64,000 nt of DNA, taken from the NCBI GenBank assembly GCA_964366085.1, contig CAYISM010000001.1:17211-81210 (forward strand). The letters run 5' to 3'. The DNA comes from an uncultured Gammaproteobacteria bacterium (GTDB taxonomy: Bacteria; Patescibacteriota; Microgenomatia; UBA8517). Numbering within the stretch: the first letter of the stretch is position 1; the number at the start of each line of letters is the position of its first letter. A model generated the notes under the pieces. That model made no database searches. It saw only the letters and a program-made list of their open reading frames with translations, and was not told the DNA's origin. This document shows positions 7,565 to 64,000 of this stretch, piece by piece. The position numbers and the translations under genes were made by a program.

Positions 7565-9118
7565 TTATTTTTTAATGTCCTTTCGTAACCTCTCTTCAAT
7601 TTTTATATCACCGAAGTACCTCTCGGAAACCAATCCGGAATATGAATTCTCCTCACCTACTGTCTCGTCCAAATAACGAAGTGGAATCCCAGCCAAAGGC
7701 TCAATTACTAAAAAGTATTGCTTTGTATCCTTGTCCGTTTTCGGCAGACTATCCAACTGCCCGACTTGGTCTTTTCCATGCCACTCTGGTATATAACCAT
7801 ACTTAGGCTGGCCATACCATTTGTAAAGATAAGTCCAAACGATATTGATCCAAAGAGGCGAAGTTAAGGAATTAATACTAAAAGGTCTTCCCTTGGCCTC
7901 ATTGTAAGTATAATCTATGACTGATAACTGTTTTTTCAGAATCATATCTTTCTGTATCGCAAAAATAGTGGATCCTTTCGGATTTTCCTTAAATATCATA
8001 AGAATATTCCCCAAAACAATTACCCAAAAAACCACTAAGGCAATCGCTTTCCCCCCACTGCTTGCCAAATTGTAAATAAATATTCCTAAAATAATTGAAA
8101 CCGCAGGCCCAATTCCTACTAAGAGAAAGGGTGTACTGGTTCCTCCAACAGATACCACGGTAATATGACTTAAAAGCCATGAGACAATAAAAGGCTGCCA
8201 CCCCACCTCGCCCTCCCGGCTTCGAGAGGCAAGTGCACCACTTCTCCACTCAACAATCGCCATAATAATCAATATAAGTACAAAAACTCCTCCGTAACCT
8301 ACGTTTCCGGGATAACTCGAATAGGCAAAAACTCGTCCTATCTGGTTAATAAAAAGTAGTAAAAAATCCCCAAGCCCTTTTGAAGCAACAATACTATCTT
8401 GTGTAGTTAGCAGGGACAAAACACCTCCGATACCTTTAAAACCAAATTTTATTTCGGATATTAAAATTGTCGAAATCGAAAGCAAAAAAAATATTCCGAA
8501 CTTTATTAGGCTTTTTTTATCAATATTTTTTCTGGCAAACCACAGCCATAAAACCAGCGGTACCGCGTGGTAAAGAAGAAATATTTCCGCTTGAATACTT
8601 AAACCCAATCCGATAGCCGCAACAATTGGGCCCCAACTCTTTTTCTCTTTAATCCAGACCCACAGTCCGAGATAGAATAGCGGCACAGTCCAAACACCGA
8701 TAGTGGGATTTGAAAGCCAAGTGGCATATTGTGTTGCCTCAAAAGAAATTGCGAAAAGTATTGCGGCAACAAGTCCGGCCTTTTGACTTTTTGTAAAAAG
8801 ATAGGACAGATAAAAAACTATAAAAACCGTCAAGGCATTTAACAAAGCTATCCAATAAGCCGCGACAATCGGACTTCCATGCCCTAAATAGTAAGCGGGT
8901 GCGAGTAGGTAGTAATAAAAAACTCCATGATATAAGCCCGGTGTGGAAGCAGGTGGACCTAAAACTTTAAGATCTCCTTTTAAGATTTCTTGACTAACAT
9001 ATGCATCCCTCGCCTGATCGTATCCGAAAGTCAAAGAGAGATTCTTTAAAAAAATCACCCTTAAAAAGAAGGCTAAAACAAAAACAAGAAGTAGGGCCAC
9101 CAAAACAGTTTTTTTCAT
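7565..9118 (-). CDS. GT-C-type polytopic membrane glycosyltransferase (ArnT/PMT_2-like); member of a three-gene paralog set with 24488-26038 and 26585-28198
   Basis: N-terminal TM, then FGYDQARDAYVSQEIL, then a Y-rich YHGVFYYYLLAPAYYLG loop. The same architecture is found in the other two paralogs. Confidence 0.55.
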   Translation of the reverse strand: MKKTVLVALLLVFVLAFFLRVIFLKNLSLTFGYDQARDAYVSQEILKGDLKVLGPPASTPGLYHGVFYYYLLAPAYYLGHGSPIVAAYWIALLNALTVFIVFYLSYLFTKSQKAGLVAAILFAISFEATQYATWLSNPTIGVWTVPLFYLGLWVWIKEKKSWGPIVAAIGLGLSIQAEIFLLYHAVPLVLWLWFARKNIDKKSLIKFGIFFLLSISTILISEIKFGFKGIGGVLSLLTTQDSIVASKGLGDFLLLFINQIGRVFAYSSYPGNVGYGGVFVLILIIMAIVEWRSGALASRSREGEVGWQPFIVSWLLSHITVVSVGGTSTPFLLVGIGPAVSIILGIFIYNLASSGGKAIALVVFWVIVLGNILMIFKENPKGSTIFAIQKDMILKKQLSVIDYTYNEAKGRPFSINSLTSPLWINIVWTYLYKWYGQPKYGYIPEWHGKDQVGQLDSLPKTDKDTKQYFLVIEPLAGIPLRYLDETVGEENSYSGLVSERYFGDIKIEERLRKDIKK

Positions 9119-48071: not shown

Positions 48072-51000
48072 TCATCCTGTTTGATCAATTATGTCAAAAA
48101 TCCGTTGTCGCTCCTTGATATCCTCAATTTTTGGACCAATTACTTCTTTAATTGCTGCTTTGGGATCAACTGTATGATTCATAATTGCAGCTACCCTTGT
48201 CGTTGCCCTAAGAGAGAACGGAAAATCAACCTGCTCTAAGCTTCTGCCACTTTGATAAGCATCGAAGGCTTCTCTGATTTTGTTGGCAACTTTTACGACA
48301 ATAAGTAGACGCTTTACCGCATCCTCTCGCTCCGCAGTTTTGAACTGTTCTCCCCCTTTACCTTGCTCTTTATTTACTACCAAATTCCAGAGCGAAACAA
48401 ATTCCGTTTGATTAAGCGCTTTAAGTGGTTCCATCATCTTGGCTGCCATTTCTGCCTCGTCCGAGCGATACCTCACTTGATTCTGGCTACCCGTTTCCTG
48501 CAAAGGTGGATAGCCATACAGTAAAATATCAGCTCTGTCTTTGACCTCTGGTGATAACTTTTTGGTTCCAATATAACGAGTAGGATTCATGTCTCCAACA
48601 AACAAAACGCTTGGATGGGCACGAATTTGTTGTTTTCGATTGCCCTCTGTAACGAAAACCGAACGACGATAATCAAAAAGGGAGTTGAGCAATTTGAGGA
48701 CTTCCGGTGGTAATGTATTAATTTCAGTGAAGTCAATCATTGTCCCTGGCCTTTGTATACCATTAATGAGTTGAGAGGGAATCTTTACAGTTCCTGTCTT
48801 GGGGTCAAACCAATATTCATAGATCAAATCCTGCCTTTCCATGGAAAAGTTACATGGAATCGTAACAATTTCCTCGTTAGTAAAATGGCCGAACATGTCC
48901 CAAAGAACATTTTTGCCTGCGCCAGCTTCACTCTCAACGACCAAAATCCCATCCTGCATCTCTAATTGTAATTTGGCTCTCTTGGCAATCCTGCCATGCA
49001 TTTCTCGCATGTATTGAGTGTAAACCCATTTTTCATTCCAAGTCGGGACTGTCCTTTCTTGGGCCGCAAAAAACGCTCGAGCTTCAGGAGTAGTCAAAGA
49101 AATTACTTGCTCAGTAGTAGGATCAGTTAAGGATAGGGGAATGGACCCTAATCTATCAGGAACAAATTCTCGGCCGCTAGTGTCCGCATAGACTAAATGA
49201 CCAAATTGACTGCCTGGAGACAAGGGGACAATTTTTGGTGCCCAAGCAGCTTTAGACTGGGCAAAAACAGGAAATTTTTCCCCTGCAAAATCAACCTCGC
49301 CTGCTTTTTGTAATACTCCTGCACTTTTAGCAATACGAAGATTCGTGGTTGCCTTAGCTAATAATGCCTCTAGTTTAGTCTCCTCTTCTTGCCTCAATTC
49401 TGACGGGAGTGAGAGAATTTTTGCTCGCAGTTGAATAAGTTGGGGACTTCTTCTCAGCCTTTCCAAATCCGCATTTGATGCTACCGTTTCTATAATTCTT
49501 GTTTCAAATTCACTGACGCCCTGACGGATAATGTCAACTTCGCCGACCAATTTCGTCCTTTTCGCTTCTTCTGCTAGTACCGCAGACTGCCTGATTTGTT
49601 CTCGTTTAGAGTTTATTACTCCTGATAATTTTTGCTGCCACTCAGCTGCTGCCTTAGGATCTTTAATGAAAAAGGTAAGTTGATCAAACTTGAGAATTGC
49701 TTCGTGGCCTGAGAGGTCAGAAAGCTCATCGAGAGAGCCCGCCCTGTCAATTAACGCTTGTACGCGGGTTAACTCTCCAGGAAGAATTGAGGTGATTTGT
49801 GCTTGATAATGCTCAACTACCGTATCTCTTTTCTGTTTTAATGCTTGGATTCTTTCATCTATTTCCCTTCTCTTCTCCGGATCAATAATATTGGCCTTCC
49901 CTCTTTCTAACTCCAATTCTGTTACTTTAGCATCCAAATTGGCCGCTTGGTCGACAGTTTTTATATCTTTCCCCAAAGTTTCGACCCGACTAATTGCCTG
50001 GGCAAGTCCCTCGACTTGAATGGCAGAAATTCTGCCACCGATATCAGCCTCCATTTTATTAAAGCTCTGGGGGTAGTCTATAAATCGTGAATCCTGTTTG
50101 AGTCTTTCTATATCTGAGGAGACCAGAGCCAATTCATTAGGAGTTTTAGCCTTATTAATTCTCTCACCAAATAGCTTCTGTAACTGGGCTTCAAGTGCTT
50201 TATTCACGTCTATTTCAGTAAATTTACGCGGGGTTCTGGCTTGCGCGGTGTCTACAGTCAAGTTCCCGGCTGCTTCTATCAGTTGACGTAATCTTTCCTC
50301 ATGCTGTCTTTTAACTGCTTCAACACCCCCAGGTGGAATACCTGCAAAGTTGGTCTGAACCAGGCGGACTCGATTTTGATCGTCTGAAAAATAGATCTGT
50401 CCATCAGGCGCTACCGTCATATCTCCACCGACTCCATCGATTTCCTTTACTTTTTTACCCGAAGCTTTGTCAACGATTACCAATTTGCCTGAGGTTTCAC
50501 TTGGGTCTTTTTTAACTGTCAGAACAAAAAAATTGCCATTTGGTTCTAATGCAAAGTCTGTCGGTCTACCTCCTAAATCTTCCATGGGGACTGGCCGAAC
50601 GTCTGGATTTCGGCTTTTGACAGAAGAAATGTTTATCGTTTGAACTTTCCCGGTGGCTTGATCCAAAACATAGATCAGTTCAGGATCGTTGGGGTTATAA
50701 GAAGCCTCTTGAGTCAATTGTCTATAAAGAACTTCCTTAGTTTTCGGATCGGTAATTGTTAATAAGCCCTGATAATCCCGTTTCATTTCGACATCGTATT
50801 TTGTAATACTTATTGTTTGTTCTCGTGGTGTTGCTAGTTGTGGGGGAATGTCGCTAATAGATAATATGCCATCCCCTCCCATTATCTTTGAATCGATTAG
50901 TGAACGATATCTCCACTTACCCGGTGAAACAATCTGACCTTTGTTGGCAACTTCAGCAATAATTGGTTTTCCAGCAACCACTATTCTGATGAAATTCCCA

Positions 51001-51581
51001 TCAGGAGAGATCTCAAGATGAGGGTCTACGGTTAAGAGAGGAGTTGTTCCAAAAACAGTTTTGGGCGATTGAGCCAATCCACTTCTTAGCTTACTCATTT
51101 CTATATACAGTTTTTCATCACTTTTTTCTACTATGTTGTGAGTGATTTGCTTGGCAAGTTCAAATACTTTACTAGCCAACTCTAACCCTATCGGTTCAGA
51201 TAGATCTTGACAGTACTTCTTTGGAAATTCATCAAAACGTACCCAATTGCCGCCTTTTTTTGTGGATAATTCAGCAATATCCTCCAGTGTTAGTGCTCGA
51301 TAAAAAGGTAGAATAACTTTGTCTCCTTGATTGTCATAAATGTCAATAACGTAGCCGTTAGGTTCGCCCCGAACAACAAATGTATAACCCCGCGCGGCTG
51401 TAATACTTTCAATTCTAGTTGTGGAATTGTCTTTAAGTATTTCTGGTGGTTGGAGTTCGGCTTGAACGAACGATCCCAAACCACTTTCGGCAGGTACGGG
51501 CCTGAGAGCGTCCCCCATTTGTCCAGTAATTCGTTCTGATGCAAGTGGTTCTGTCATTTTATCCGATAATAAAAGCTTCAA
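48072..51581 (-). CDS. Giant multidomain protein: N-terminal NHL/beta-propeller-like repeats, long coiled coil, C-terminal MoxR/AAA_5-like ATPase module with non-canonical Walker motifs
   Basis: 1169 aa. The repeats include VAPDGQIYFSDDQNRV and EPNGNFFVLTV. About 400 aa are heptad-rich. The C-terminal module reads ESEAGAGKN (Walker A-like), MIDFTEINTLPPEVLKLLNSLFDYRR (Walker B region, D to T) and VLFVGDMNP...LSPEVKDRADILL (sensor/Arg region), which parallels MoxR. Confidence 0.65.
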   Translation of the reverse strand: MKLLLSDKMTEPLASERITGQMGDALRPVPAESGLGSFVQAELQPPEILKDNSTTRIESITAARGYTFVVRGEPNGYVIDIYDNQGDKVILPFYRALTLEDIAELSTKKGGNWVRFDEFPKKYCQDLSEPIGLELASKVFELAKQITHNIVEKSDEKLYIEMSKLRSGLAQSPKTVFGTTPLLTVDPHLEISPDGNFIRIVVAGKPIIAEVANKGQIVSPGKWRYRSLIDSKIMGGDGILSISDIPPQLATPREQTISITKYDVEMKRDYQGLLTITDPKTKEVLYRQLTQEASYNPNDPELIYVLDQATGKVQTINISSVKSRNPDVRPVPMEDLGGRPTDFALEPNGNFFVLTVKKDPSETSGKLVIVDKASGKKVKEIDGVGGDMTVAPDGQIYFSDDQNRVRLVQTNFAGIPPGGVEAVKRQHEERLRQLIEAAGNLTVDTAQARTPRKFTEIDVNKALEAQLQKLFGERINKAKTPNELALVSSDIERLKQDSRFIDYPQSFNKMEADIGGRISAIQVEGLAQAISRVETLGKDIKTVDQAANLDAKVTELELERGKANIIDPEKRREIDERIQALKQKRDTVVEHYQAQITSILPGELTRVQALIDRAGSLDELSDLSGHEAILKFDQLTFFIKDPKAAAEWQQKLSGVINSKREQIRQSAVLAEEAKRTKLVGEVDIIRQGVSEFETRIIETVASNADLERLRRSPQLIQLRAKILSLPSELRQEEETKLEALLAKATTNLRIAKSAGVLQKAGEVDFAGEKFPVFAQSKAAWAPKIVPLSPGSQFGHLVYADTSGREFVPDRLGSIPLSLTDPTTEQVISLTTPEARAFFAAQERTVPTWNEKWVYTQYMREMHGRIAKRAKLQLEMQDGILVVESEAGAGKNVLWDMFGHFTNEEIVTIPCNFSMERQDLIYEYWFDPKTGTVKIPSQLINGIQRPGTMIDFTEINTLPPEVLKLLNSLFDYRRSVFVTEGNRKQQIRAHPSVLFVGDMNPTRYIGTKKLSPEVKDRADILLYGYPPLQETGSQNQVRYRSDEAEMAAKMMEPLKALNQTEFVSLWNLVVNKEQGKGGEQFKTAEREDAVKRLLIVVKVANKIREAFDAYQSGRSLEQVDFPFSLRATTRVAAIMNHTVDPKAAIKEVIGPKIEDIKERQRIFDIIDQTG

Positions 51582-53809
51582 ATCTGTCTCATTCTTGAGA
51601 CATATAAAAGTGTGTTTCGCAAAACCTGGAATGCTGATTCTGGTAATTGACCGAATGTCTCCGGCACAGCAACATTTTCTTCACCAAAATAGAAAGCCAG
51701 ATCTCTTTTCAACTGCTCTCTTTGGACAGGATCCTGAGCTAGTGCAAAGGCTTTAAGAATGGTACTTGATTTTCTCGTACCGATGTAATCTTTGAGTTCT
51801 TGACCTGTCCTTCCCGCATTAGCTCTACCATCAGAAATGGTGAAAATGGCGCCAAAACTTTCCGGAAAAATCCTCTGCGCTTCACTTGTTTCCTCTAAAG
51901 CTTTTGTTATACCGCTATCTAGATCAGTCGATTCACCACTGGCATTAGTCATAGTTACCAGTTTTTTCTTAATCGCATATCTTGGCTCATCGAAAGGTTG
52001 TGTAAAGTCCATAATTTGTTCCGTTTGACTGCCAAATAATTTGATAGCGAAAGGCATTTCGTAATGCTTAAAAACTTGGGCAAAGAAAATAGCGGTTTTG
52101 ATAGCTACCTCCATTTTTTCGCCCGACATACTACTACTGTTATCGATAAGTAGGGTTGCGTAGAGTAAGGCCTCGGGCAAATCTACGACTTCTTTTCTTT
52201 TAAGGATTCTATAATCTCCTACCGGTATTCTTTGAGCCGCCGTTCGACTATCCGGTCTACTTCCGGTTATAAAGCGTCCTGTTCTTACTACGCGATACTT
52301 TTTGGGAACATACGGGTCGATCATGTCGATGAATCGTCGGGTGTAAGGAAGTATTTCTGCTTCAAGTTGTTGATAACGGCGGTAGTGTTCTAAATCCTGC
52401 TCGTCAAATCCTGCTCGTAACATTTCTGTCTTTTCCTGCATCTTCCCCTCTTTACTTCGTCGTTCCGAGTCCCTTGTCTGTTGAGCCTGTGACTCTTTAC
52501 TAAGACGTTCCATTTCTCCAGTTTCCATTTCTGATAACATTTTTTCGAGCTCAGCCGCTGTTTTTTGACCATTCTTTGGATCTTCCCCCTTAAGATGAGC
52601 CTTGTATTCTCCTGTTTTTTGGTCTTTTTCCATCCGAAGAAGTTTTGGGAGCTCTTTATTTAGTGTTTCTGATTGTTTACGGTCAAGTTCCTCCCGAGCT
52701 TTGGCCATTAATCTCTGTTTTAAATCTTCTGGTAGTTGTTCGATGGCCTTCTCAAGAGCTGCTTCCTGCTCTGGTGATAGTTCGCCTGGTTGTTGATCCT
52801 CTGATCCGCCTTGTTGGCCACCCCTAAGCGATTTTTCAAGTTCTCGCTTCAAGTCTTGAGGCAATTTCTGGGTGGCTTCTCGCCCCGGATTGTTACCGAT
52901 CTCTTCTCCTGATTGCTGGCCCTTACCTTGACCACGTCTCTCTTGTCCCTGTCCTTGTTGACCTTGGCCTTGGCCTTTCTGCTCCTGCTGGAGGTTTTGC
53001 TTTATCTGGTCTTTAGCTTCGTCTTTCTGAGCTTGCGCTTCCAAAACTTTAAAAGTTGGCCAGATTTTTTCTCTGAAGAGTTTGTGATTATCTGCCGGGG
53101 TTGCCCCGTAAAAATATTCTTCTAGTGCTGGTTTTATTTGTTCAAAGGCGCTTCTAACTCTTTCATCTTTAAGAGTGGGTAAATTCTCTCCAGTAAGCCA
53201 GTAGTAAATGACATTTAATCCTAGTTGGTGGGTAATTGGCTGAGTAGATACATGGGGAATAATTTCTGCCGTGCTGGCTGCGTATCTTGTTTTCATCTGC
53301 TGCTCTACTACCGTGGAGTCTTCAATTTCTCGAATATTTACCCAAACATCCTCGGGATAGTTAATTGCCATGGCATAGGTACTAGGCAAAACGCCTTGCT
53401 CTTGTGCCCACCTTTGCCCTTCAAGGAATAATCTATAATCTGTATTATTGACATGTCCCACTTCGTGACGAAGTACACCCAGAACTTCATCCTCTGGCTT
53501 GGTGGCTACTTCTTTCTCATCATAGTGAATTTGGGTTGGGTGAAATGTTGAGTTTGGTAAGCCGTCCAAGGTGGGTCTTTGACCCATGACATATTTCTCT
53601 ACTTCCTCTAAATGTTCGTTGTCTAAACCCGCAGACCAACCCCCGTGTTCTGAAGGAACAACGGTGAGACTATAAGTTCTAGAAAATACCCGTGCTATCC
53701 AAGCCATTTTCTGCTTCCGCTCGGCAACCATTTCCGAAGTCAAAGCCTCCTCTGATCTACTAAGGGCTGATCCAGTCACTTGCACGTTTTTATCTATTAA
53801 CTCGGTCAT
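51578..53809 (-). CDS. HExxH metallopeptidase-like N-terminal domain plus Q/G/E-rich low-complexity linker plus C-terminal VWA (MIDAS) domain protein (DUF2201-like architecture)
   Basis: 743 aa. VLGVLRHEVGHVNNTDY HExxH motif, QQEQKGQGQGQQGQGQERRGQGKGQQ linker, and C-terminal LLIDNSSSMSGEKM...TNASGESTDLDSG VWA/MIDAS. It overlaps the downstream giant gene by 4 bp. Confidence 0.65.
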   Translation of the reverse strand: MTELIDKNVQVTGSALSRSEEALTSEMVAERKQKMAWIARVFSRTYSLTVVPSEHGGWSAGLDNEHLEEVEKYVMGQRPTLDGLPNSTFHPTQIHYDEKEVATKPEDEVLGVLRHEVGHVNNTDYRLFLEGQRWAQEQGVLPSTYAMAINYPEDVWVNIREIEDSTVVEQQMKTRYAASTAEIIPHVSTQPITHQLGLNVIYYWLTGENLPTLKDERVRSAFEQIKPALEEYFYGATPADNHKLFREKIWPTFKVLEAQAQKDEAKDQIKQNLQQEQKGQGQGQQGQGQERRGQGKGQQSGEEIGNNPGREATQKLPQDLKRELEKSLRGGQQGGSEDQQPGELSPEQEAALEKAIEQLPEDLKQRLMAKAREELDRKQSETLNKELPKLLRMEKDQKTGEYKAHLKGEDPKNGQKTAAELEKMLSEMETGEMERLSKESQAQQTRDSERRSKEGKMQEKTEMLRAGFDEQDLEHYRRYQQLEAEILPYTRRFIDMIDPYVPKKYRVVRTGRFITGSRPDSRTAAQRIPVGDYRILKRKEVVDLPEALLYATLLIDNSSSMSGEKMEVAIKTAIFFAQVFKHYEMPFAIKLFGSQTEQIMDFTQPFDEPRYAIKKKLVTMTNASGESTDLDSGITKALEETSEAQRIFPESFGAIFTISDGRANAGRTGQELKDYIGTRKSSTILKAFALAQDPVQREQLKRDLAFYFGEENVAVPETFGQLPESAFQVLRNTLLYVSRMRQI

Positions 53810-53836
53810 CAGTTCAGATACTCCTTACATAGATTC

Positions 53837-53845
53837 ATATTACCA
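53837..53845 (-). promoter_or_regulatory. Extended -10-like element TGGTAATAT upstream of the VWA-protein gene; an AAGGAG SD lies at 53821-53826
   Basis: Minus-strand reading gives TGGTAATATGAATCTATGTAAGGAGTATCTGAACTGATG. Confidence 0.35.
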
Positions 53846-53931
53846 ATTAGCCAGTCCGTAAACAACGAATGATTTTCTGTTACCAAACAAAACTGAAACC
53901 TTTGTAATTGAGGTTACTGACATTTCTTGAA

Positions 53932-54183
53932 CTATTTGTAAATTTCTCTTCTGTGACCAACTCGGAGAATAATGATATTTTTACCACCAATGTCGAAAAT
54001 TACTCTGTAATTTCCAGCTCGAAAGCGATATGTTCCTAATCGAGGATCTGTCAGCTTTTTGGAATACTTGAAAGGGCTCAGAGAAAGAAATTCTAACCTC
54101 TTTTTTATTTTCTTTCTGGCAACTCTGTCCAGTTTCTTAATATCCCTTACCGCAGATTTTGTATAAAGAAGATTGTAAACCAT
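53932..54183 (-). CDS. RelE/ParE-superfamily toxin (YoeB/Txe-like)
   Basis: 83 aa; ...YRFRAGNYRVIFDIGGKNIIILRVGHRREIY; start overlaps the antitoxin stop. Confidence 0.75.
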   Translation of the reverse strand: MVYNLLYTKSAVRDIKKLDRVARKKIKKRLEFLSLSPFKYSKKLTDPRLGTYRFRAGNYRVIFDIGGKNIIILRVGHRREIYK

Positions 54184-54431
54184 TAGATCTCACCAAAAAC
54201 TTGGGAGTGCGAAAGAATATCGCCTTTTTTATATTCCTCCCTGGCTTTTTTAATGCTTGCAATATATTTTTTATTGGAGAAAGCCAAAAGATCTTCGAAA
54301 AAATCTATATTAACCAAGGCAGAAGTTATCCTTCCTTTGCGAGACACGAGAAGAAAATCTTTCTTGGATGAAACTTCCTTGATCGCATCCGCTAAATTAT
54401 TCCTAAGCGTCGCAGAACTTACAACATTCAT
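54183..54431 (-). CDS. Phd/YefM-family antitoxin
   Basis: MNVVSSATLRNNLADAIKEVSSKKDFLLVSRKGRITSALVNIDFFEDL is the YefM pattern. A TGTACAATA -10-like element lies 12 nt upstream. The longer ORF extending to 54542 is unlikely to be the real start. Confidence 0.7.
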   Translation of the reverse strand: MNVVSSATLRNNLADAIKEVSSKKDFLLVSRKGRITSALVNIDFFEDLLAFSNKKYIASIKKAREEYKKGDILSHSQVFGEI

Positions 54432-54502
54432 GTCAGTTTCTATTGTACATCTAAAGTGTACGATATCAAGACAACAGTTCCGGTAACGACATTTTTTGCT
54501 TA

Positions 54503-54523
54503 TCCGCCTCTGCTGGAAAATGC
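54503..54523. repeat. Right copy of the 21-bp direct repeat TCCGCCTCTGCTGGAAAATGC
   Basis: Exact match to 48006-48026. Confidence 0.8.
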
Positions 54524-54577
54524 TATACGAATAGGGAACCACACAGTTAGCTCGCTTACTGCTTGCCCCTTCTAAAC

Positions 54578-55630
54578 TTATTGTTGAAAATAATTATTAA
54601 TTGCGAATTGAAGCTGTCCCATATAAAGACGCTTAAAGTTATATAAATTGTTGGTTTCATAGAAAACAACCATAGCACTTCGATATTCGTTAACATCAAT
54701 ATTTCGATAAGATAATGGAAAATAATCGTAAGCCATTAAAACTGCATTTGAAAGCATGCGTGAAGTCCTTTTATTTCCATCAGCAAATGGCTGGATATAT
54801 GCGATCATTATCGCCAATATCAATGCCTTTTCAGGTGAATATTCAGTTTTATTTACACGTTCAATTAATTGCCTTAGTACGTTTTCGATCTGATGTTTAT
54901 CAGATAATGGCTCATACTGCGTCCCGGAAATCTTCACCTTTTGCGATCTAACTCCAGAAGTTATTAGACCTTTCGTTAACACTTGGTGTAACTGAATAAT
55001 ATCGGCAAAATCTAATTTTTTAAATGAATCCTTTTTATCTAAGATCACTTCAAATGCTTTTTTGTGGTTTAAAATCATCACAGCCTCTTCATCTGAATGT
55101 CCATGGGCCTTGATATTCTGTTTAATCAAGGTTTCCGTTTCGATTAAAGTATATGTGTTTCCTTCAATTTGTGATGATTTCCATGAGAGTTCAATGATAA
55201 ATCTCTCAAGTTCTCTTTTATAAATTGATGGATCTAATTTGTTCCCCGCCTCTTTAAAGATTTTTTTGCTTCTTTCCCATAGGTTAATCTCATCCGGTGA
55301 ATATAAATTATTTAGACGAGAAAACACATTATTGTTAAATTTTTTGCTAATAATCCTAGCTTCAATTTCCGTTTTAAAATAATCATCTAGGTCAAGATAT
55401 GTAAGCAGGGAGTTTGTTTCAACCAACCCGTAAATAGTATTTTTCCCCTTCCCCGACATTTCAACAAGATTTAAATCAATAAGGCGATTAAGGTCCCGAA
55501 TAAAAGTGATCCTCGAAATACTTTCGTCAGGTGAAATTTGGCTGGCCAAAACAAGACGGGATATGCTACCCGCCTCTTTTAAGATCTTGAGAATTTTCTT
55601 CTGGCGATCGTTAAGATTCGTATCATTCAT
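54578..55630 (-). CDS. Fic/Doc-family protein with N-terminal winged HTH; core motif QPFADGNKRTSR (catalytic His replaced by Gln)
   Basis: IAYIQPFADGNKRTSRMLSNAVLMAYDYFPL aligns with the canonical Fic HPFxDGNGRTSRLL. Codons were checked directly: CAG at 54791-54793. Start taken at MNDTNL; the ORF track extends to a GTG at 55705. Confidence 0.7.
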   Translation of the reverse strand: MNDTNLNDRQKKILKILKEAGSISRLVLASQISPDESISRITFIRDLNRLIDLNLVEMSGKGKNTIYGLVETNSLLTYLDLDDYFKTEIEARIISKKFNNNVFSRLNNLYSPDEINLWERSKKIFKEAGNKLDPSIYKRELERFIIELSWKSSQIEGNTYTLIETETLIKQNIKAHGHSDEEAVMILNHKKAFEVILDKKDSFKKLDFADIIQLHQVLTKGLITSGVRSQKVKISGTQYEPLSDKHQIENVLRQLIERVNKTEYSPEKALILAIMIAYIQPFADGNKRTSRMLSNAVLMAYDYFPLSYRNIDVNEYRSAMVVFYETNNLYNFKRLYMGQLQFAINNYFQQ

Positions 55631-55639
55631 ACTCTTTAA

Positions 55640-55659
55640 TCGTATCATAAATGATACGA
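55640..55659. promoter_or_regulatory. Perfect 9-bp inverted repeat TCGTATCAT-aa-ATGATACGA upstream of the fic-like gene
   Basis: Read directly from the sequence. It lies between the secA stop and the probable fic start, so it is a candidate operator. Confidence 0.35.
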
Positions 55660-55699
55660 ATAGTGAACACTCCGAAGAGCTCGGCGAATGGAACTCAAT

Positions 55700-55718
55700 G
55701 TACACCTCGGAGGTGTAC
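55700..55718. promoter_or_regulatory. 8-bp stem, 3-nt loop hairpin GTACACCT-cgg-AGGTGTAC just downstream of the secA stop; candidate terminator or operator
   Basis: Read directly from the sequence; no clear U-tract follows on the minus-sense strand. Confidence 0.3.
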
Positions 55719-58540: not shown

Positions 58541-59203
58541 TCAATTCTTGCATATAAACATCACATTAGCCTCTGGGTAAAATATTTCAACCTCTCCGAA
58601 TACCTTTTTTAGCTTATTTCCAAATTTAACCGCTTCTACCCTTTTCCTATCAAAATAAAGCCTATTGAAAACCGCAATACCGCCACCAGACAACAGTTTA
58701 AGTATAAATCTAAGAAAAAAGTCTGTAGTAAACTTCTCCGGCACTCCGTATCCGACATAGAGGTCCATTAAAATTAGATCATATTTTTGAGTTTTAACAT
58801 TTGAGACTTGAGTTACGAACTCATAAGCATCCTGTATTTTTATATCAACGTCTATATTGCCTAACCCCAAGTATTTTTTGCCTAGTCCTATCATGATCGG
58901 GTCAATCTCGACACCTGTAATTTTTGCATCGGGCTCGCCTCGTGAAGCGGGCCAAAGTTTTCTAACAATTTTCGCAGCTGTTCCACCCCCCAAGCCCAAG
59001 ATAAGTGAGTTATGAATTATGAATTTGGAATTATGAATTTTCTTGAGAGTTTTTCGCCAGATTTCTTCCACAACTCCTCCAGATTGGGTAAGATTGTCAA
59101 CCTGGATATACGTCCCAAAAGCTAAACTTCTTACTACTCTTATTCTTCCATTAATGGGTGAGTCAACTTCCTCCAAAATTTTCGTCCCCAAAACAAAGTC
59201 CAT
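58541..59203 (-). CDS. Spermidine-synthase-like class I methyltransferase-fold protein
   Basis: LILGLGGGTAAK...ITGVEIDPIMIGLGKKY...DLILMDLY. Confidence 0.55.
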   Translation of the reverse strand: MDFVLGTKILEEVDSPINGRIRVVRSLAFGTYIQVDNLTQSGGVVEEIWRKTLKKIHNSKFIIHNSLILGLGGGTAAKIVRKLWPASRGEPDAKITGVEIDPIMIGLGKKYLGLGNIDVDIKIQDAYEFVTQVSNVKTQKYDLILMDLYVGYGVPEKFTTDFFLRFILKLLSGGGIAVFNRLYFDRKRVEAVKFGNKLKKVFGEVEIFYPEANVMFICKN

Positions 59204-59253: not shown

Positions 59254-59496
59254 ATGAGAGAAGAAAGGAAAACAAGCGGTCCTATTGAAGCGGGAAGGTA
59301 TAGATTTTTCTGCGCCAGACTCGCTACCTGCCAAGTTTTTTTGAACGAACGATTAGAACAAAGAAGGTTTGTCAGAAAAGTTGGAAGTCCGGCTCCCGAA
59401 TGGATAGAAAAAGATATTAAGAACCTTTTCAAACTTAAAAGAGATCTAAATCGGGAAAGAAGAAAAATCGAGAGGAACCTCGGGATTTCTAGGTGA
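59254..59496 (+). CDS. Small basic hypothetical protein (81 aa); weak call
   Basis: ATG is preceded by an extended -10-like GGTGTTATAAT at 59233-59243. Arg/Lys-rich. Could alternatively be non-coding. Confidence 0.25.
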   Translation: MREERKTSGPIEAGRYRFFCARLATCQVFLNERLEQRRFVRKVGSPAPEWIEKDIKNLFKLKRDLNRERRKIERNLGISR

Positions 59497-59538
59497 CTTC
59501 TTTACTTCGGATTTTGTTTGGATGTAAAATGACCGGAT

Positions 59539-60699
59539 ATGGTTTCTATTCCATTACCAGAGGTTTTACGGCCCAAAAAATTATCCCAGTTTGTTGGGCA
59601 GGAAAATTTAGTGGGAAAAAACGGCATCATTAGCAGGTTGCTAAGTAACCAAATAATCAATGCTTACTTCCCTTCTCTCATCTTCTGGGGCCCGCCAGGG
59701 TCAGGTAAAACAACGCTGGCAAAAATAATTGCCAATACCTTAAAAAGGGAATTCTTTGAATTTTCGGCGGTTTCGGTTTCAATAAAAGATATTCAAAAGG
59801 TTATGACTGTGGGGAATCTTTTTCCGCCTGTAATTTTGATTGATGAAATTCATAGATTTAATAAAGCCCAGCAAGATAAACTTCTTCCCTTTGTAGAACG
59901 CGGTGATATAACTTTAATTGGAGCAACAACAGAAAATCCATCCTTTGAGGTCATTGGTCCGCTTTTATCCCGCACTCGCGTACTCATCCTAAATCAACTT
60001 ACCCAAAAAGAACTCAGGAAGATTATTAAAAGAGCAGAAAAACATCTTAAAGTTAAACTTGACAAAAAAGCACAAGAATTTTTAATTGAATCATCTAATG
60101 GTGACGCCCGAGTTCTTCTGAATGTTCTCGAAATCGCTCATAACTTAAATACTAAATACAAAATACTAAATACTAAACATATCGAACAGGCACTTCAAAG
60201 AAGACAATTAACTTTCGACAAACAGGGTGAAGAATTTTACAACGTAATTAGCGCATTTATCAAATCAATGCGGGCAAGCGATGTCGACGCCGCGCTTTAC
60301 TATCTCGCCAGAATGGTTGAGGCCGGCCAGGACCCTTTATACATTGCAAGGAGAATGGTAGTGTTTGCCAGTGAGGATGTTGCCTCCCCCACCGCTTTAG
60401 TAGTAGCAAATGCAGTGTTCCAAGCTTGCAATACGATTGGTTATCCAGAGTGCCAAGAGAACCTAGCGGCAGGGACAGTTTATTTGGCTACAGCAAAGAA
60501 GGATAGGAGTGCTTACGAGGCCTACATGAGAGCCCTAGAGGATGTTAAAAGGTTCGGAAACCTCCCTATTCCACTCCAAATCCGCAATCCGGTTACAAAA
60601 TTAATGGAAGAAATCGGCTATGGAAAAGGCTACGAAAAGTACGATAAAACCAGTTATTTGCCCGAAAAATTAAGAGGTAAGAAGTATTTTAGAAACTAG
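59539..60699 (+). CDS. rarA: Recombination factor protein RarA/MgsA (AAA+ ATPase)
   Basis: Walker [12 protein letters not shown], Walker [15 protein letters not shown], and a C-terminal MgsA helical domain. Confidence 0.9.
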
Positions 60700-60722
60700 C
60701 AACTAGATTCTAGTTCCTATTC

Positions 60723-60746
60723 TGTCTTTCCCAACCCACTTTTGAA
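60723..60746. repeat. 24-bp exact duplicate of the serS 3'-terminal coding sequence (TGTCTTTCCCAACCCACTTTTGAA), here intergenic
   Basis: Identical to 62909-62932. The reverse complement would encode QKWVGKD, as at the SerS C-terminus. Confidence 0.75.
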
Positions 60747-60996
60747 AAACTTGATTTCGGCAATTGACAACCTTGTTCCCACGATATTAAATCAAAATAT
60801 GATCACCAACACTGATATTGAGTTACTCAAAGATACCTTTGCTACCAAAGAAGATCTTCAGCAGATGAAAAGCGATCTTTTAGATAAACTCGATTCTGTT
60901 TTAAAAGAAATTCTTGCATCTAGAGAAGAAGAAACAATATTATCTCATAGGGTTTCAGACCACGAAGATAGAATCACAAAACTTGAATCAAACTAA
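60742..60996 (+). CDS. Small coiled-coil hypothetical protein
   Basis: 84 aa with heptad-like charged repeats. Confidence 0.35.
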   Translation: MKNLISAIDNLVPTILNQNMITNTDIELLKDTFATKEDLQQMKSDLLDKLDSVLKEILASREEETILSHRVSDHEDRITKLESN

Positions 60997-61057
60997 TTTC
61001 TAGACTGCTAACTAAAGATTACTAGCTACTATTTTTTCCTTCCCAGCCCATTTAAAT

Positions 61058-62878
61058 TTATTGATATCCAATCGCTTGCTTATTAAACATTCTTGCATAA
61101 ACTCCATTTTTCCTTATTAAATCTTCATGGCTTCCTTGTTCAATTATTTTCCCTTTATCAAGGACGATAATCTTATCAGCATTTCTGACTGTCGAAAATC
61201 TGTGGGAAATCAAAAACAAAGTTTTATCTTTATAAAACTTTTTAAGGTTGTTAAAAATCTCAAACTCGCTATCGGCATCGATTGCCGAAGTCGGTTCGTC
61301 TAGTATCAAAACGGGTGCAGACTCGTAGAAGGCTCTGGCAACGGCCAATTTTTGCCATTGCCCTTGAGAAAGTTCAATCCCTCCTTCAAATTGACGACCC
61401 AAAAGTTGATTATATTTTTTTGGTAGTTCTTCGATAAACTCTTTCGCTCCGCTTTTCTCGGCAGCGTCTAGCATTCTTTTGTGATCCTTAACTTCAGTAT
61501 TCCCTAGCATTATGTTTTCGGCGACTGTAAAGTCATAGTGCATAAATTCTTGAAAAAGCGTGCCCAAAAACGCATACCAGTCCGAAATTTTTAGGTCTTT
61601 TATACTCACCCCATTTATTAAAATTTCTCCCGAAGTTACATCGTAAAAACGACAAAGAAGCTTGACTATCGTTGTTTTACCCGCCCCATTTTTTCCGACA
61701 ACCGCAATATTCTCCCCTGGGTCAATCGTAAAACTTACGCTTTTTAAAACCGTTTCTTTGGCGCCGGGATACGAGAATGAAACACCCTTAAATTCAATTC
61801 TCGGGGGCAAATCTTTTCTAGAAATTCTTACAGGGTGACTTGTCTCCTTAATTGTCGGCGAGAGACCCAGAACTTCAAAATAATGATCTACGTATAAATT
61901 ATTCTCGTACATATCACCAAGATTCAAAATCATATCCGCGACAGCACCCGAAATCCTGTCCAAGATACTTACAAAAAAAGTAAAATCTCCAACCGACATT
62001 TTGCCAGACAGGACAACCGGCAACTTAAGGTAGGCAAAAATAAACACCACCGAAACTTCAAAAAGCTGAGGGAAAATTGCAACATTCAAAAACTTTTCTA
62101 CCGGCCCTTTGTTGAGGTTATATAGATAATCTTGTGTTTTCTTAAAACGACCCAAAAGCTCTTTCCCCGATTGAAAGATTCTTGACTCGACAATCGCCAT
62201 CTTAGTTGAAAGTAACCAGCGAAGGTACCAAAGTTTACGGACTTCTGGGGCACCCGAACCATATATTGACCACTCAAGTTTTCCGAATTTGGTCCTTAAA
62301 TATAAGCGCGGCAAACTCAGAAAAGACACTGTAATCGGAATCCACCATCCGTAAGGAATCAAGATAAGAAATGAAGAGACGTAGCTAACAAAATTGTTAA
62401 AAAGATACGAAGATTGTCTCAAAAAATCAGGGGGTCTCCAGGTAAAAGTATCCGAAGCTTTTGCAATTAAATCTTCCGTTTTCGGATTTTCCAAGTGAGC
62501 AATATCTAAATTAGAAACTTTCTCAAAGAATCTATAATTAAGTGCGTTCTGGATTTTGTACCTAAACAAAAAATCAAAATATGTGTTTTTCAGGCCCCAC
62601 ATCACAAAATCCCAGGCAATGTTCAAAATATATCTCGACCCGAGAAGCGCAATTAAGATAAGGGGGATTGTGGTAGTGATATTTTGTGACTTAATTAAAT
62701 AGTCAACCAAAAGTTTATAAATATAACTCGTGATAATCGGGAAAAATGCGCCGATGCCGGCAGTGCCAAAATATCCGATTGTAAGAAACTTATCAGTTTC
62801 CCACGCCAAAGAAAGCATTCTTCCAAGGTTGATAAGAACGTTTTGTGCAGATTTAGCTAATGACGAAAACCGTTGCAT
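61058..62878 (-). CDS. ABC exporter, fused permease plus ATP-binding domains (MsbA/multidrug-type)
   Basis: 6 TMs, then Walker A GKNGAGKTT, LSQGQWQKLAVARA signature and Walker B ILDEPTSAID. Confidence 0.85.
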   Translation of the reverse strand: MQRFSSLAKSAQNVLINLGRMLSLAWETDKFLTIGYFGTAGIGAFFPIITSYIYKLLVDYLIKSQNITTTIPLILIALLGSRYILNIAWDFVMWGLKNTYFDFLFRYKIQNALNYRFFEKVSNLDIAHLENPKTEDLIAKASDTFTWRPPDFLRQSSYLFNNFVSYVSSFLILIPYGWWIPITVSFLSLPRLYLRTKFGKLEWSIYGSGAPEVRKLWYLRWLLSTKMAIVESRIFQSGKELLGRFKKTQDYLYNLNKGPVEKFLNVAIFPQLFEVSVVFIFAYLKLPVVLSGKMSVGDFTFFVSILDRISGAVADMILNLGDMYENNLYVDHYFEVLGLSPTIKETSHPVRISRKDLPPRIEFKGVSFSYPGAKETVLKSVSFTIDPGENIAVVGKNGAGKTTIVKLLCRFYDVTSGEILINGVSIKDLKISDWYAFLGTLFQEFMHYDFTVAENIMLGNTEVKDHKRMLDAAEKSGAKEFIEELPKKYNQLLGRQFEGGIELSQGQWQKLAVARAFYESAPVLILDEPTSAIDADSEFEIFNNLKKFYKDKTLFLISHRFSTVRNADKIIVLDKGKIIEQGSHEDLIRKNGVYARMFNKQAIGYQ

Positions 62879-62894
62879 TAATTAAATTTTAGAC

Positions 62895-64000
62895 CTATCT
62901 GGAGATTTTGTCTTTCCCAACCCACTTTTGAAGCACTTTGGGGATTTTGACCGAACCGTCTTCCTGCTGATAATTTTCCAAAATTGCGATGATTGTGCGA
63001 CCAATTGCAAAAGCTGTCCCGTTAAGAGTGTGGGCAAATTCAGTTTTGTCTCCTTCGCGATACTTTATATTCAATCTCCTTGCCTGAAAATCTGTTGTTG
63101 TTGAAGTTGAAGTTAGTTCGCGATACTTCTCTTGCGAAGGAATCCAGGCCTCCAAATCATATTTTCTGGCAGCCGGCATTCCTAAATCCCCCGAACACAT
63201 TTTGACAACTTGATAGGGGAGTTTCAGTTTTTGCAAAAGTTTTTCCTCCAAAGAAAGTAAGAATTCGTGCTCGCGATCTCCGTCTTCGGGCTTAACGTAC
63301 GAAAACATTTCTACTTTATCAAATTGGTGAACCCTTAAAATTCCTCTTGTGTCCTTGCCATAAGTCCCCGCTTCCCTTCTGAAACAAGTAGAAAAGCCCA
63401 TGTATCTAAGAGGTAAGCTGTTAGCCATAAGCGTTTCGTTTGCGTGCATTGGCCCAATTGATTGTTCAGAGGTTCCGACTAAAACCAATCCATCTTTATC
63501 GAAAATATACATCTGTTCATTTCCTCCATGTTCCATATATCCCATTCCCTGCATCATTTCGGTTTTAATAAAAACCGGAGGAACAACCGGAGTAAAACCT
63601 TCTTTTGTCAAAGTTTCAATTGCAAGTTGTACTAATGCAAATTCCAAAAGAACTGCATCCCCTTTTAAATATCCGAATCTTGCTCCCGAAACTTTTGCAG
63701 CGCGTTCTACGTCAATTATTCCCAACTTCTCGCCAAGCTCAAGGTGGTCTTTAGGTTTAAAATCAAATTTTTTAGGCTCTCCGTGCTTCCTTAAAACTTC
63801 ATTTTCAGTATCGTTTTTGCCTTCTTTTACGTCATCAGCTGGCGAATTCGGAATCTTAAACATTGTCTTTTTATATTTCTCTTCGACTTCTTTTAATTCC
63901 GGTTCGAGCTTTTTTAGTTTCTCTTTAATTTCCTTGCCCTTGCTACTTACTACATGCTCCTTACTACTAATCTCATTTCTCTCAGCCCGAAGTTCCTCAA
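62895..64000 (-). CDS. serS: Seryl-tRNA synthetase; the N-terminus runs off the window
   Basis: Class II aaRS core (FSTCFRREAG, GRTIIAILENYQ). The minus frame stays open to 64000 and encodes the SerS N-terminal coiled coil (…EEFRAERNEISSKEHVVSSKGKEIKEKLKKLEPELKEVEEKYKKTMFKIPN…), so the Met at 63863 is internal. Confidence 0.9.
   Translation of the reverse strand, partial: EELRAERNEISSKEHVVSSKGKEIKEKLKKLEPELKEVEEKYKKTMFKIPNSPADDVKEGKNDTENEVLRKHGEPKKFDFKPKDHLELGEKLGIIDVERAAKVSGARFGYLKGDAVLLEFALVQLAIETLTKEGFTPVVPPVFIKTEMMQGMGYMEHGGNEQMYIFDKDGLVLVGTSEQSIGPMHANETLMANSLPLRYMGFSTCFRREAGTYGKDTRGILRVHQFDKVEMFSYVKPEDGDREHEFLLSLEEKLLQKLKLPYQVVKMCSGDLGMPAARKYDLEAWIPSQEKYRELTSTSTTTDFQARRLNIKYREGDKTEFAHTLNGTAFAIGRTIIAILENYQQEDGSVKIPKVLQKWVGKDKISR
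62909..62932. repeat. serS 3'-terminal 24 bp within the coding sequence; source copy of the duplicate at 60723-60746
   Basis: Exact 24-nt match. Confidence 0.75.

Follow-up and report, generated by a model that had tools for sequence, protein, structure and literature searches.

The last codons of serS, the gene for seryl-tRNA synthetase (SerRS), recur within 2.2 kb near one end of the window (the whole 64-kb stretch of contig CAYISM010000001.1 analysed here; coordinates are counted from its first letter). Read along the minus strand, the gene order is: serS; a 16-nt spacer; a gene for an ABC exporter; a serS-like copy, C; a small open reading frame (ORF) on the opposite strand; a further copy, B; rarA, also on the opposite strand; an 80-aa lineage-specific ORF; a methyltransferase gene; and secA. 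The functional end of serS itself is designated copy A. The host is assigned to the Microgenomates group of the Candidate Phyla Radiation (CPR), because the closest serS genes in the Genome Taxonomy Database (GTDB) come from that group. Among GTDB species representatives, which do not include the source genome, the best are 63–66% identical (Roizmanbacteria, Levyibacteriota, and Microgenomates metagenome-assembled genomes). Two contigs from the Hainich groundwater metagenome, L001 and L002, are 99.98–99.99% identical to the window; beyond serS they add a His_Phos_1 gene, two hypothetical genes, and greA.

The 3' part of serS (62895..64000, minus strand; Pfam tRNA-synt_2b and Seryl_tRNA_N) extends past the window end; the full product is 412 aa, with its N-terminus taken from L001. 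Copy A is a 34-nt repeat unit (62905..62938, minus strand) whose exact 24-nt core (62909-62932) encodes QKWVGKD. The 16-nt spacer (62879..62894, minus strand), with a −10-like TAAAAT at 62886-62891, leads to the exporter gene (61058..62878, minus strand), which encodes a 606-aa half-transporter with fused membrane and ATPase domains (Pfam ABC_tran, 1e-30). Copy C (61012..61054, minus strand) was recognized through repeat analysis, alignment with B, and positional homology in an alignment of relatives, A1, described below. The small ORF (60799..60996, plus strand) encodes a 65-aa coiled-coil protein of a Microgenomates-only family. It is preceded by a promoter-like element (60764..60792, plus strand) consisting of TTGACA (60764-60769), 17 nt, and TTAAAT (60787-60792). 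Copy B (60703..60752, minus strand), a relic serS tail reading VFQKWVGKDRIGTRI before its stop, holds the 34-nt repeat at 60719-60752 and the core at 60723-60746. Beyond it lie rarA/mgsA (59539..60699, plus strand), for an AAA+ ATPase (Pfam MgsA_C, AAA_assoc_2, and AAA), and a spermidine-synthase-like methyltransferase gene (58541..59203, minus strand; Pfam Spermine_synth), the usual downstream partner of the exporter gene in relatives.

A sequence-only reading of the window had noted that the 24-mer TGTCTTTCCCAACCCACTTTTGAA is present exactly at 60723-60746 and 62909-62932, and it is. No further copy occurs in the 64-kb window, with up to 3 mismatches tolerated. Similarity between A and B reaches 34 nt (60719-60752 and 62905-62938), with identity at 31/34 positions. 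On the minus strand, copy A is the true serS end, ...IPKVLQKWVGKDKISR (PKVLQKWVGKDKISR), and its stop codon occupies 62895-62897. In copy B the reading is ...NQVFQKWVGKDRIGTRI up to a stop at 60703-60705, which is 3 nt away from the rarA stop (60697-60699). The third, degenerate copy that had been placed at 61033-61050 proves to be a true relic located a few bases off: CCTTCCCAGCCCATTT sits at 61038-61053. Copy C begins 3 nt past the exporter stop, encodes KWAGKEKIVASNL, and ends in a stop (61012-61014) that is 15 nt from that of the small ORF.

Scored against a hidden Markov model (HMM) of the SerRS C-terminus, copy B gives E=0.0045, and copy C alone is not significant (E=2.9). C aligns with B over about 85 nt, beyond the conserved core, with a score of 60 versus 22.8 ± 4.4 for shuffled sequences (0/3000 shuffles equal it); the tails alone score 35 versus 16 ± 3.3. 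C also matches the real serS tails of three relatives (L086, L127, and L097) column for column in alignment A1. The upstream flank of B in turn resembles serS (score 30; shuffle p=0.0013, empirical p about 0.002), and B may continue upstream, decayed, for about 60 nt to about 60810. If so, the preservation of its 34-nt end would be the more striking. The notion that B copies the exporter-C junction was dropped on the same comparison, in which the flank of B resembles serS and not the exporter 3' end (p=0.30).

It is hardly credible that these copies arose by coincidence, belong to a dispersed motif, or act as a terminator, regulatory box, or other functional element, unrelated to insertion. 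Some cross-lineage DNA similarity is expected, as the 24-mer encodes the most conserved part of the SerRS C-terminus, VL[QR]KW.GK[DE][KR]I, and the 3' motif of serS is identical at 26–32 of 33 positions between divergent alleles. However, none of 100 dinucleotide-preserving shuffles gave a second copy. Dispersal of the 24-mer over unrelated loci had been named beforehand as an observation that would undo the insertion idea, and the 24-mer is not dispersed: when up to 4 mismatches are allowed across 2.27 Mb (177 loci), it turns up only in serS tails or in relics downstream of serS, plus one likely chance match. Each relic is read in frame from the serS strand and has its stop codon beside a former neighbour. 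Moreover, no terminator-like structure overlaps the repeat copies.

The residues that follow ...GK[DE][KR]I in SerRS are hypervariable in length (1–14 aa) and sequence, even among alleles 75–82% identical. This fits either frequent tail replacement or absent constraint. The SerRS of L021 has the same QKWVGKDKISR end, but transfer was rejected in favour of conservation: that organism is high in GC, and synonymous differences occur throughout. Neither DRIGTRI nor KISR forms the end of any of the 120 closest SerRS proteins, so that no living carrier of tail B appears among them.

What did the locus look like before the copies arose? The comparison set comprises 80 metagenome loci with rarA at 67–81% identity, together with GTDB loci, and defines a clade-wide neighbourhood: secA, the methyltransferase gene, sometimes the ABC exporter gene, rarA, a variable gap, serS, and sometimes His_Phos, hyp198, and greA. 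The sequence-only reading had proposed a search for relatives in which rarA and serS are directly adjacent, and the closest relatives indeed have the two genes abutting tail to tail. In L087 (serS 81% and rarA 81% identical to the window) their 3' ends overlap by 11 nt, and in L091 (serS 85%, rarA 77%) the gap is 0 nt; the two genes likewise abut or overlap in L017, L103, L143-145, and L154. Convergence with abutting stops appears to be the ancestral state. Copy B would then be the fossil of that junction, because its 3-nt distance from the rarA stop reproduces the geometry seen in relatives.

Since relatives have the empty site and B keeps its geometry, insertion of the 2.2-kb segment into the last ~40 nt of serS, with the terminus rebuilt, is the part of the earlier proposal that stands. 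One part that does not is the single insertion, which gives way to two nested layers, as the small ORF reveals.

The small-ORF family has 25 homologues among 5.8 billion proteins, all from Microgenomates, and the window member matches no Pfam, NCBIfam, or PHROG family (PHROG matches of the small ORFs are weak coiled-coil noise). Its homologues consistently converge on serS and are placed no more than ~11 nt from its stop, abutting or overlapping it. The loci concerned are L086, L097, L100, L127, L171, and L173; a 70-aa gene in L167 is probably a further homologue at a serS stop. Alignment A1 (the window, L086, L127, and L097) contains one homologous cassette: a promoter-like element, the ORF, and a serS tail on the opposite strand. 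The sequence TTGACA-N17-TTAAAT, 6 nt before the small-ORF ATG, forms invariant columns across all four sequences and is a putative small-ORF promoter. In the window, the serS-tail position of this cassette is filled by C.

Because seven related lineages have a small-ORF homologue abutting the real serS stop, C is best read as a second fossil junction, a serS tail that was functional while the small ORF adjoined serS. That arrangement (serS, opposite-strand small ORF, rarA, without the exporter) persists in L097 and L173. L171 is in the serS-small ORF state too, with two more genes before rarA, again without the exporter. Because relic C separates the two genes, the 2.2-kb segment is interpreted not as one insertion but as two nested layers: the small-ORF cassette with tail C (layer 1), followed by the exporter with tail A (layer 2).

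A second family of small coiled-coil ORFs (87 aa) is found in L127 (7922-8185), where it converges on a relic serS tail, and in L090 (8934-9191), where it adjoins rarA. Different small convergent ORFs seem to take turns as the serS neighbour.

The layer 2 cargo has a different distribution. The exporter has more than 3000 homologues, the best of which (55–75% identical) come from Woesebacteria, Levybacteria, and other Microgenomates; secA and rarA have the same identity range. No identical copy of the exporter protein turned up in an exact-match look-up. An orthologue lies between the methyltransferase gene and rarA in about 18 loci (including L083, L085, L110, L112, L113, L126, L130, L140, L148, L150, L153, L156, L158, and L167-L170), usually 1–17 nt upstream of the methyltransferase gene. 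The ABC-methyltransferase adjacency is seen in L083, L085, L168/L169, and about a dozen others, and an HD-domain gene separates the two in L084. This usual site is ~1.5 kb away from the present one, on the far side of rarA. Because the orthologues share the identity range of core genes and sit in the same neighbourhood of relatives, the exporter gene is considered clade-native, relocated from the methyltransferase side of rarA, and not foreign. GC content is flat (0.32–0.40 in the insert versus 0.35–0.47 in the flanks).

No relative has a close exporter orthologue (at least 50% identity) between rarA and serS; the ABC gene in that position in L131 is only 34% identical. Adjacency of serS and exporter occurs elsewhere only in L166, with a 21-nt spacer. 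L166 has the best-scoring exporter homologue (74%) and a serS just 50% identical; its contig stops 97 nt past the exporter gene, and no significant serS relic follows that gene (p=0.23).

The description of the exporter as MsbA-like, made in the sequence-only reading, holds for its fold class but not for its function. The protein is predicted to be a type-I ABC exporter half-transporter, and its best matches are MsbA-like. Against the MsbA model TIGR02203 it scores 265 bits, versus an equivalog cut-off of 602, and all other NCBIfam exporter models likewise remain under their curated cut-offs. The term therefore denotes a fold class only.

TAAAAT in the serS-ABC spacer ends 7 nt before the exporter ATG, and exporter orthologues have a TATAAT-like box 6–10 nt before theirs. 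A spacing of 17 nt separates TAAAAT from AAGACA, upstream of it at the serS core's end; promoter-like matches in the region are not above chance. The serS tail may double as part of the exporter promoter. Within the exporter gene, a run of seven A's (61973-61979) leaves the 606-aa ORF intact. L001 and L002 (coverage about 4x) have eight A's at that run, and there the exporter is broken into 291 + 321 aa. An artefact of assembly or polishing could account for the difference, as could a real population frameshift variant.

The exporter's normal place, directly across rarA, invites an explanation by intragenomic reshuffling. From the usual order (serS, rarA, ABC, methyltransferase), a tandem duplication of the serS tail, rarA, and the exporter gene, followed by reciprocal loss of one rarA and one ABC gene, would swap rarA and ABC and leave a duplicated serS tail. 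Such a history requires neither foreign DNA nor a recombinase, and it accommodates A and B as same-lineage copies, identical at 24/24 positions. It does, however, call for one duplication and two precise deletions, and it leaves C and the small-ORF cassette, between the exporter gene and B, unaccounted for. Moreover, the closest relatives (L087, L091, L092, and L093) lack an exporter gene between the methyltransferase gene and rarA, and the 335-nt methyltransferase-rarA spacer of the window holds no detectable exporter remnant. (The weak blastx matches there are mutually inconsistent.) L166, in which the exporter follows serS, has a very different serS, which also speaks against it. Reshuffling thus seems an improbable source of the locus.

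Relic tails are found in no fewer than four other lineages as well. Six-frame translations of ~1.3 Mb of related loci were screened with an HMM built on the last 30 conserved SerRS residues. Besides true serS ends, it detects short relics downstream of serS, in frame and on the same strand: in L127 (E 5e-12), L104/L105 (4e-6), L092 (8e-6), L089 (2e-5), L086 (3e-5), and the window itself (copy B; 4.5e-3). The L086 relic abuts an older convergent neighbour, a 296-aa ORF, and the L127 relic abuts the second small coiled-coil ORF. Cargo varies, being the small-ORF cassette in both L086 and L127 but two small hydrophobic membrane peptides in L089. Relics start within one codon of the boundary P/[KE]VLQKW in five of six relic types (the L127 relic is longer), and the relic lies 41–48 nt upstream of the small-ORF start in both the window and L086. 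The insertions are position-specific, falling about 12 codons before the serS stop, and every insert brings a replacement tail. The tail that it displaces remains beside its former convergent neighbour, and the inserted genes are native or clade-restricted.

L086 also contains, at 8460-8897, a second, partial rarA (the C-terminal 145 aa) that is 88% identical to that of the window; its own full copy is 81% identical. The 296-aa ORF lies between this fragment and the serS-tail relic downstream, and ~5.5 kb of housekeeping genes separates the fragment from the intact rarA.

Sequence identity of serS to the window ranges from about 50 to 85% in L086-L165, while that of rarA is 67–81% and that of secA 68–81%. 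In L086, serS (57%) is discordant with its flanks (rarA 81%, secA 81%), which suggests that entire serS alleles have been replaced within the clade. A sliding-window comparison of serS with L087, L091, L097, and L166 revealed no clear recombination breakpoint near the 3' end.

The sequence-only reading had taken the duplication as the footprint of a site-specific integrating element. The evidence does not support this: no recombinase was found, GC is flat, and the cargo is clade-native. No integrase, transposase, or other recombinase domain is encoded by the insert or by any of the 51 ORFs of the window that were scanned. Nor does one occur in ten tested ORFs between rarA and serS of relatives, which are ordinary genes (for example for DNA-alkylation repair, HD-domain, DUF5677, and membrane proteins). 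The repeat-bounded segment contains no transfer genes. In viral contigs, the 24-mer and a degenerate KWMGKEKI pattern both had 0 matches, and the small-ORF homologue of L127, used as the query, had no relative. No integrase-bearing element occupies the serS site among ~170 related loci (contigs, not complete genomes) or viral contigs, and a literature search for serS as an attB site found nothing.

Set against recognized classes of element, the segment is an incomplete match. It shares with integrative elements the direct repeats that include the target 3' end, and the unoccupied site in relatives; it lacks an att-adjacent integrase and cargo of foreign composition or phylogeny. Being repeat-bounded, without recombinase or transfer genes, it shares the structure of a cis-mobilizable element (CIME). 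It does not resemble a transposon or insertion sequence: the repeat is 34 nt rather than 2–14 bp, no inverted repeat pairs the insert ends, and there is no transposase. Nor does it resemble an integron, as the window has no integrase and the repeats are in-frame serS coding fragments.

A decayed or trans-mobilized integrative element of the CIME kind is the main alternative, and it seems possible, though doubtful. In such an element the recombinase would be encoded elsewhere or lost, the serS 3' end would serve as attB, and attP would carry a mimic of the serS tail. Integration would rebuild the gene and leave attL and attR, and successive integrations would accrete in tandem. The direct repeats, one of them with the gene 3' end, the empty sites in relatives, and the three att-like copies in tandem are all as expected. 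So is the common relic boundary in five of six relic types despite different inserted genes. The arrangement also matches published accretion of integrative conjugative elements (ICEs), integrative mobilizable elements (IMEs), and CIMEs at housekeeping 3' ends (PMC5704250), as well as the tandem islands with 20-bp ssrA repeats in Dehalococcoides (PMC3146451). Several observations argue otherwise, however. No recombinase is encoded in the 2.2 kb, in the scanned window ORFs, or in the tested ORFs of relatives. The cargo is one clade-native housekeeping-type gene and one habitual serS neighbour; the inserts are tiny (0.3–1.9 kb) and have no compositional signal; and the tail is absent from viral contigs. 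Finally, the core of C is ~20% diverged, whereas crossover within a shared core should leave identical cores.

On balance, the three copies probably record serial insertions at the serS 3' end, through recombination with related Microgenomates DNA. At the start, serS and rarA would converge, with their stops abutting or overlapping. The small-ORF cassette (promoter, 65-aa ORF, and its own tail C) would then enter ~12 codons before the serS stop, stranding the original tail, B, against rarA. The exporter gene would be next to enter, between the serS body and C, together with a −10 box of its own and the new tail A; it would strand C against the small ORF. Each layer needs a replacement tail because the conserved SerRS C-terminus would otherwise be lost.

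The most likely mechanism would be recombination with related Microgenomates DNA in which the conserved serS 3' motif acts as a short right-hand anchor. A cassette bracketed by two copies of the motif could be carried into naive genomes by an ordinary double crossover, in which an element-encoded integrase need not take part. An inherited bracket would also account for the common relic boundary. Conversely, A and B, being 24-nt direct repeats, could allow the 2.2 kb to be lost precisely, which would yield a serS ending in DRIGTRI.

Several points weigh against serial insertion by this route. A and B are identical at 24/24 positions, whereas the serial model expects B, the oldest relic, to be at least as diverged as C. 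Yet C, which lies between them, is ~20% diverged (18–20 of 24–25 positions match), and its left edge (K/W) is unlike that of the other relics. The best other tail among ~85 relatives matches the A/B core at no more than 21/24 positions. Because of their identity, and because no other relative's tail exceeds this value, A and B are regarded as same-lineage copies. The contrast with C forces an extra assumption on the serial model. One possibility is that C came with its cassette from a more divergent allele (of the KEKI type, as in L091 and L097), and that a close relative in which the original allele had persisted later supplied A. Alternatively, a short conversion tract may have homogenized A and B, or the order of the layers may not be simply oldest-farthest. 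Furthermore, double-crossover recombination cannot create the first duplication, and an anchor of 34–45 nt is near the lower limit for RecA-dependent exchange. A site-specific recombinase, too, would give a left boundary shared across lineages. Finally, no population variant without either layer is seen; the two near-identical contigs, L001 and L002, are both occupied.

A bolder extension of serial insertion, speculative and rather unlikely, is that Microgenomates harbour integrase-less mini-cassettes (0.3–2 kb; one gene with its own promoter) that home to a point ~12 codons before the serS stop. Each would carry a mimic of the SerRS C-terminus, and tandem accretion would leave a readable series of displaced tails. 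The driver of such homing would be either an unrecognized trans-acting recombinase or competence-dependent recombination at a portable 35–45 nt anchor.

Other features of the window were noted in passing. The 80-aa Arg/Lys-rich ORF between the methyltransferase gene and rarA (59254-59496, plus strand) lacks homologues in ~170 related loci and matches nothing in Pfam, NCBIfam, or PHROG. Its presence widens the methyltransferase-rarA spacer, which is 335 nt in the window and about 50–100 nt in relatives. Just 5' of the rarA start, at ~59497-59532, is a non-coding element of 30–36 nt that is 88–94% identical in L091, L097, L017, L157, L139, and L165, while the surrounding intergenic DNA is unconserved; it overlaps a promoter-like TTTACT-18-TAAAAT. 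Farther away, 48072-55705 contains two large co-directional ORFs (1169 aa, with AAA_5; and 743 aa, without a Pfam match), followed by a 119-aa ORF and a Fic/DOC-family protein. This region might be a defence- or toxin-related block. Most of the genes in 655-35872 (~35 kb, a large share of a small genome) concern glycosylation. They encode seven or more membrane glycosyltransferases of the PMT_2/PMT type, numerous enzymes of families GT1 and GT2, YfhO, and a Wzx-like flippase, and they include the rml genes for dTDP-rhamnose.

Together, these results partly support the original proposal: insertion into the serS 3' end with a rebuilt terminus, and no evidence of a classical integrating mobile element. 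CPR bacteria have tiny genomes and few recognized mobile elements, and their ways of gaining and reordering genes are poorly understood. The serS locus provides a layered record of gene insertion at one essential gene, in a pattern that recurs across lineages without a visible recombinase. If the boundary is truly site-specific, it would point either to competence-driven cassette exchange or to a recombination system not yet recognized. Otherwise, the locus would be a clean example of how overlapping convergent ends constrain rearrangement, because the tail must be duplicated to keep both genes intact. Relic tails can also serve as markers for rearrangement order, misassemblies, or strain heterogeneity near serS.

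Integration into the 3' ends of housekeeping genes without disruption has been described for integrative elements (PMC5704250). As in those elements, the serS locus has a direct repeat with the target 3' end, a new terminus supplied by the incoming DNA, and an empty site in relatives. Unlike them, it has no recombinase, transfer, replication, or phage genes, and its cargo is a clade-native exporter gene and a 65-aa ORF, in inserts of 0.3–1.9 kb with no compositional anomaly.

CIMEs and tandem accretion, as with ICESt1-type elements at fda (PMC5704250) and the multiple tandem islands of Dehalococcoides bounded by a 20-bp ssrA repeat (PMC3146451), also offer a parallel. These are integrase-less segments bounded by att-like repeats that are stacked downstream of one target gene, with cargo that differs between strains. 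In those systems, however, full integrase-bearing elements occupy the same site in other strains, whereas none does so among the ~170 serS loci. The serS repeats are also uneven (A equals B, and C is ~20% diverged), and the relics keep their former convergent neighbours.

Integron arrays share the alternation of site, cassette, site, cassette, site, and the small one-gene cargo. They differ in that serS has no adjacent intI; the serS sites are in-frame coding fragments and not attC hairpins; and each serS cassette has a promoter-like element of its own, with both orientations represented.

After natural transformation, homology-facilitated or short-anchor recombination brings in related DNA by way of a conserved anchor, and normally replaces sequence rather than duplicating it. 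Mosaic alleles (serS versus rarA and secA) agree with this process, as does the lack of any need for element-encoded machinery; the first duplicated serS tail is not explained by replacement. The serS locus is a known kind of footprint, here in a variant form that recurs within one CPR clade.

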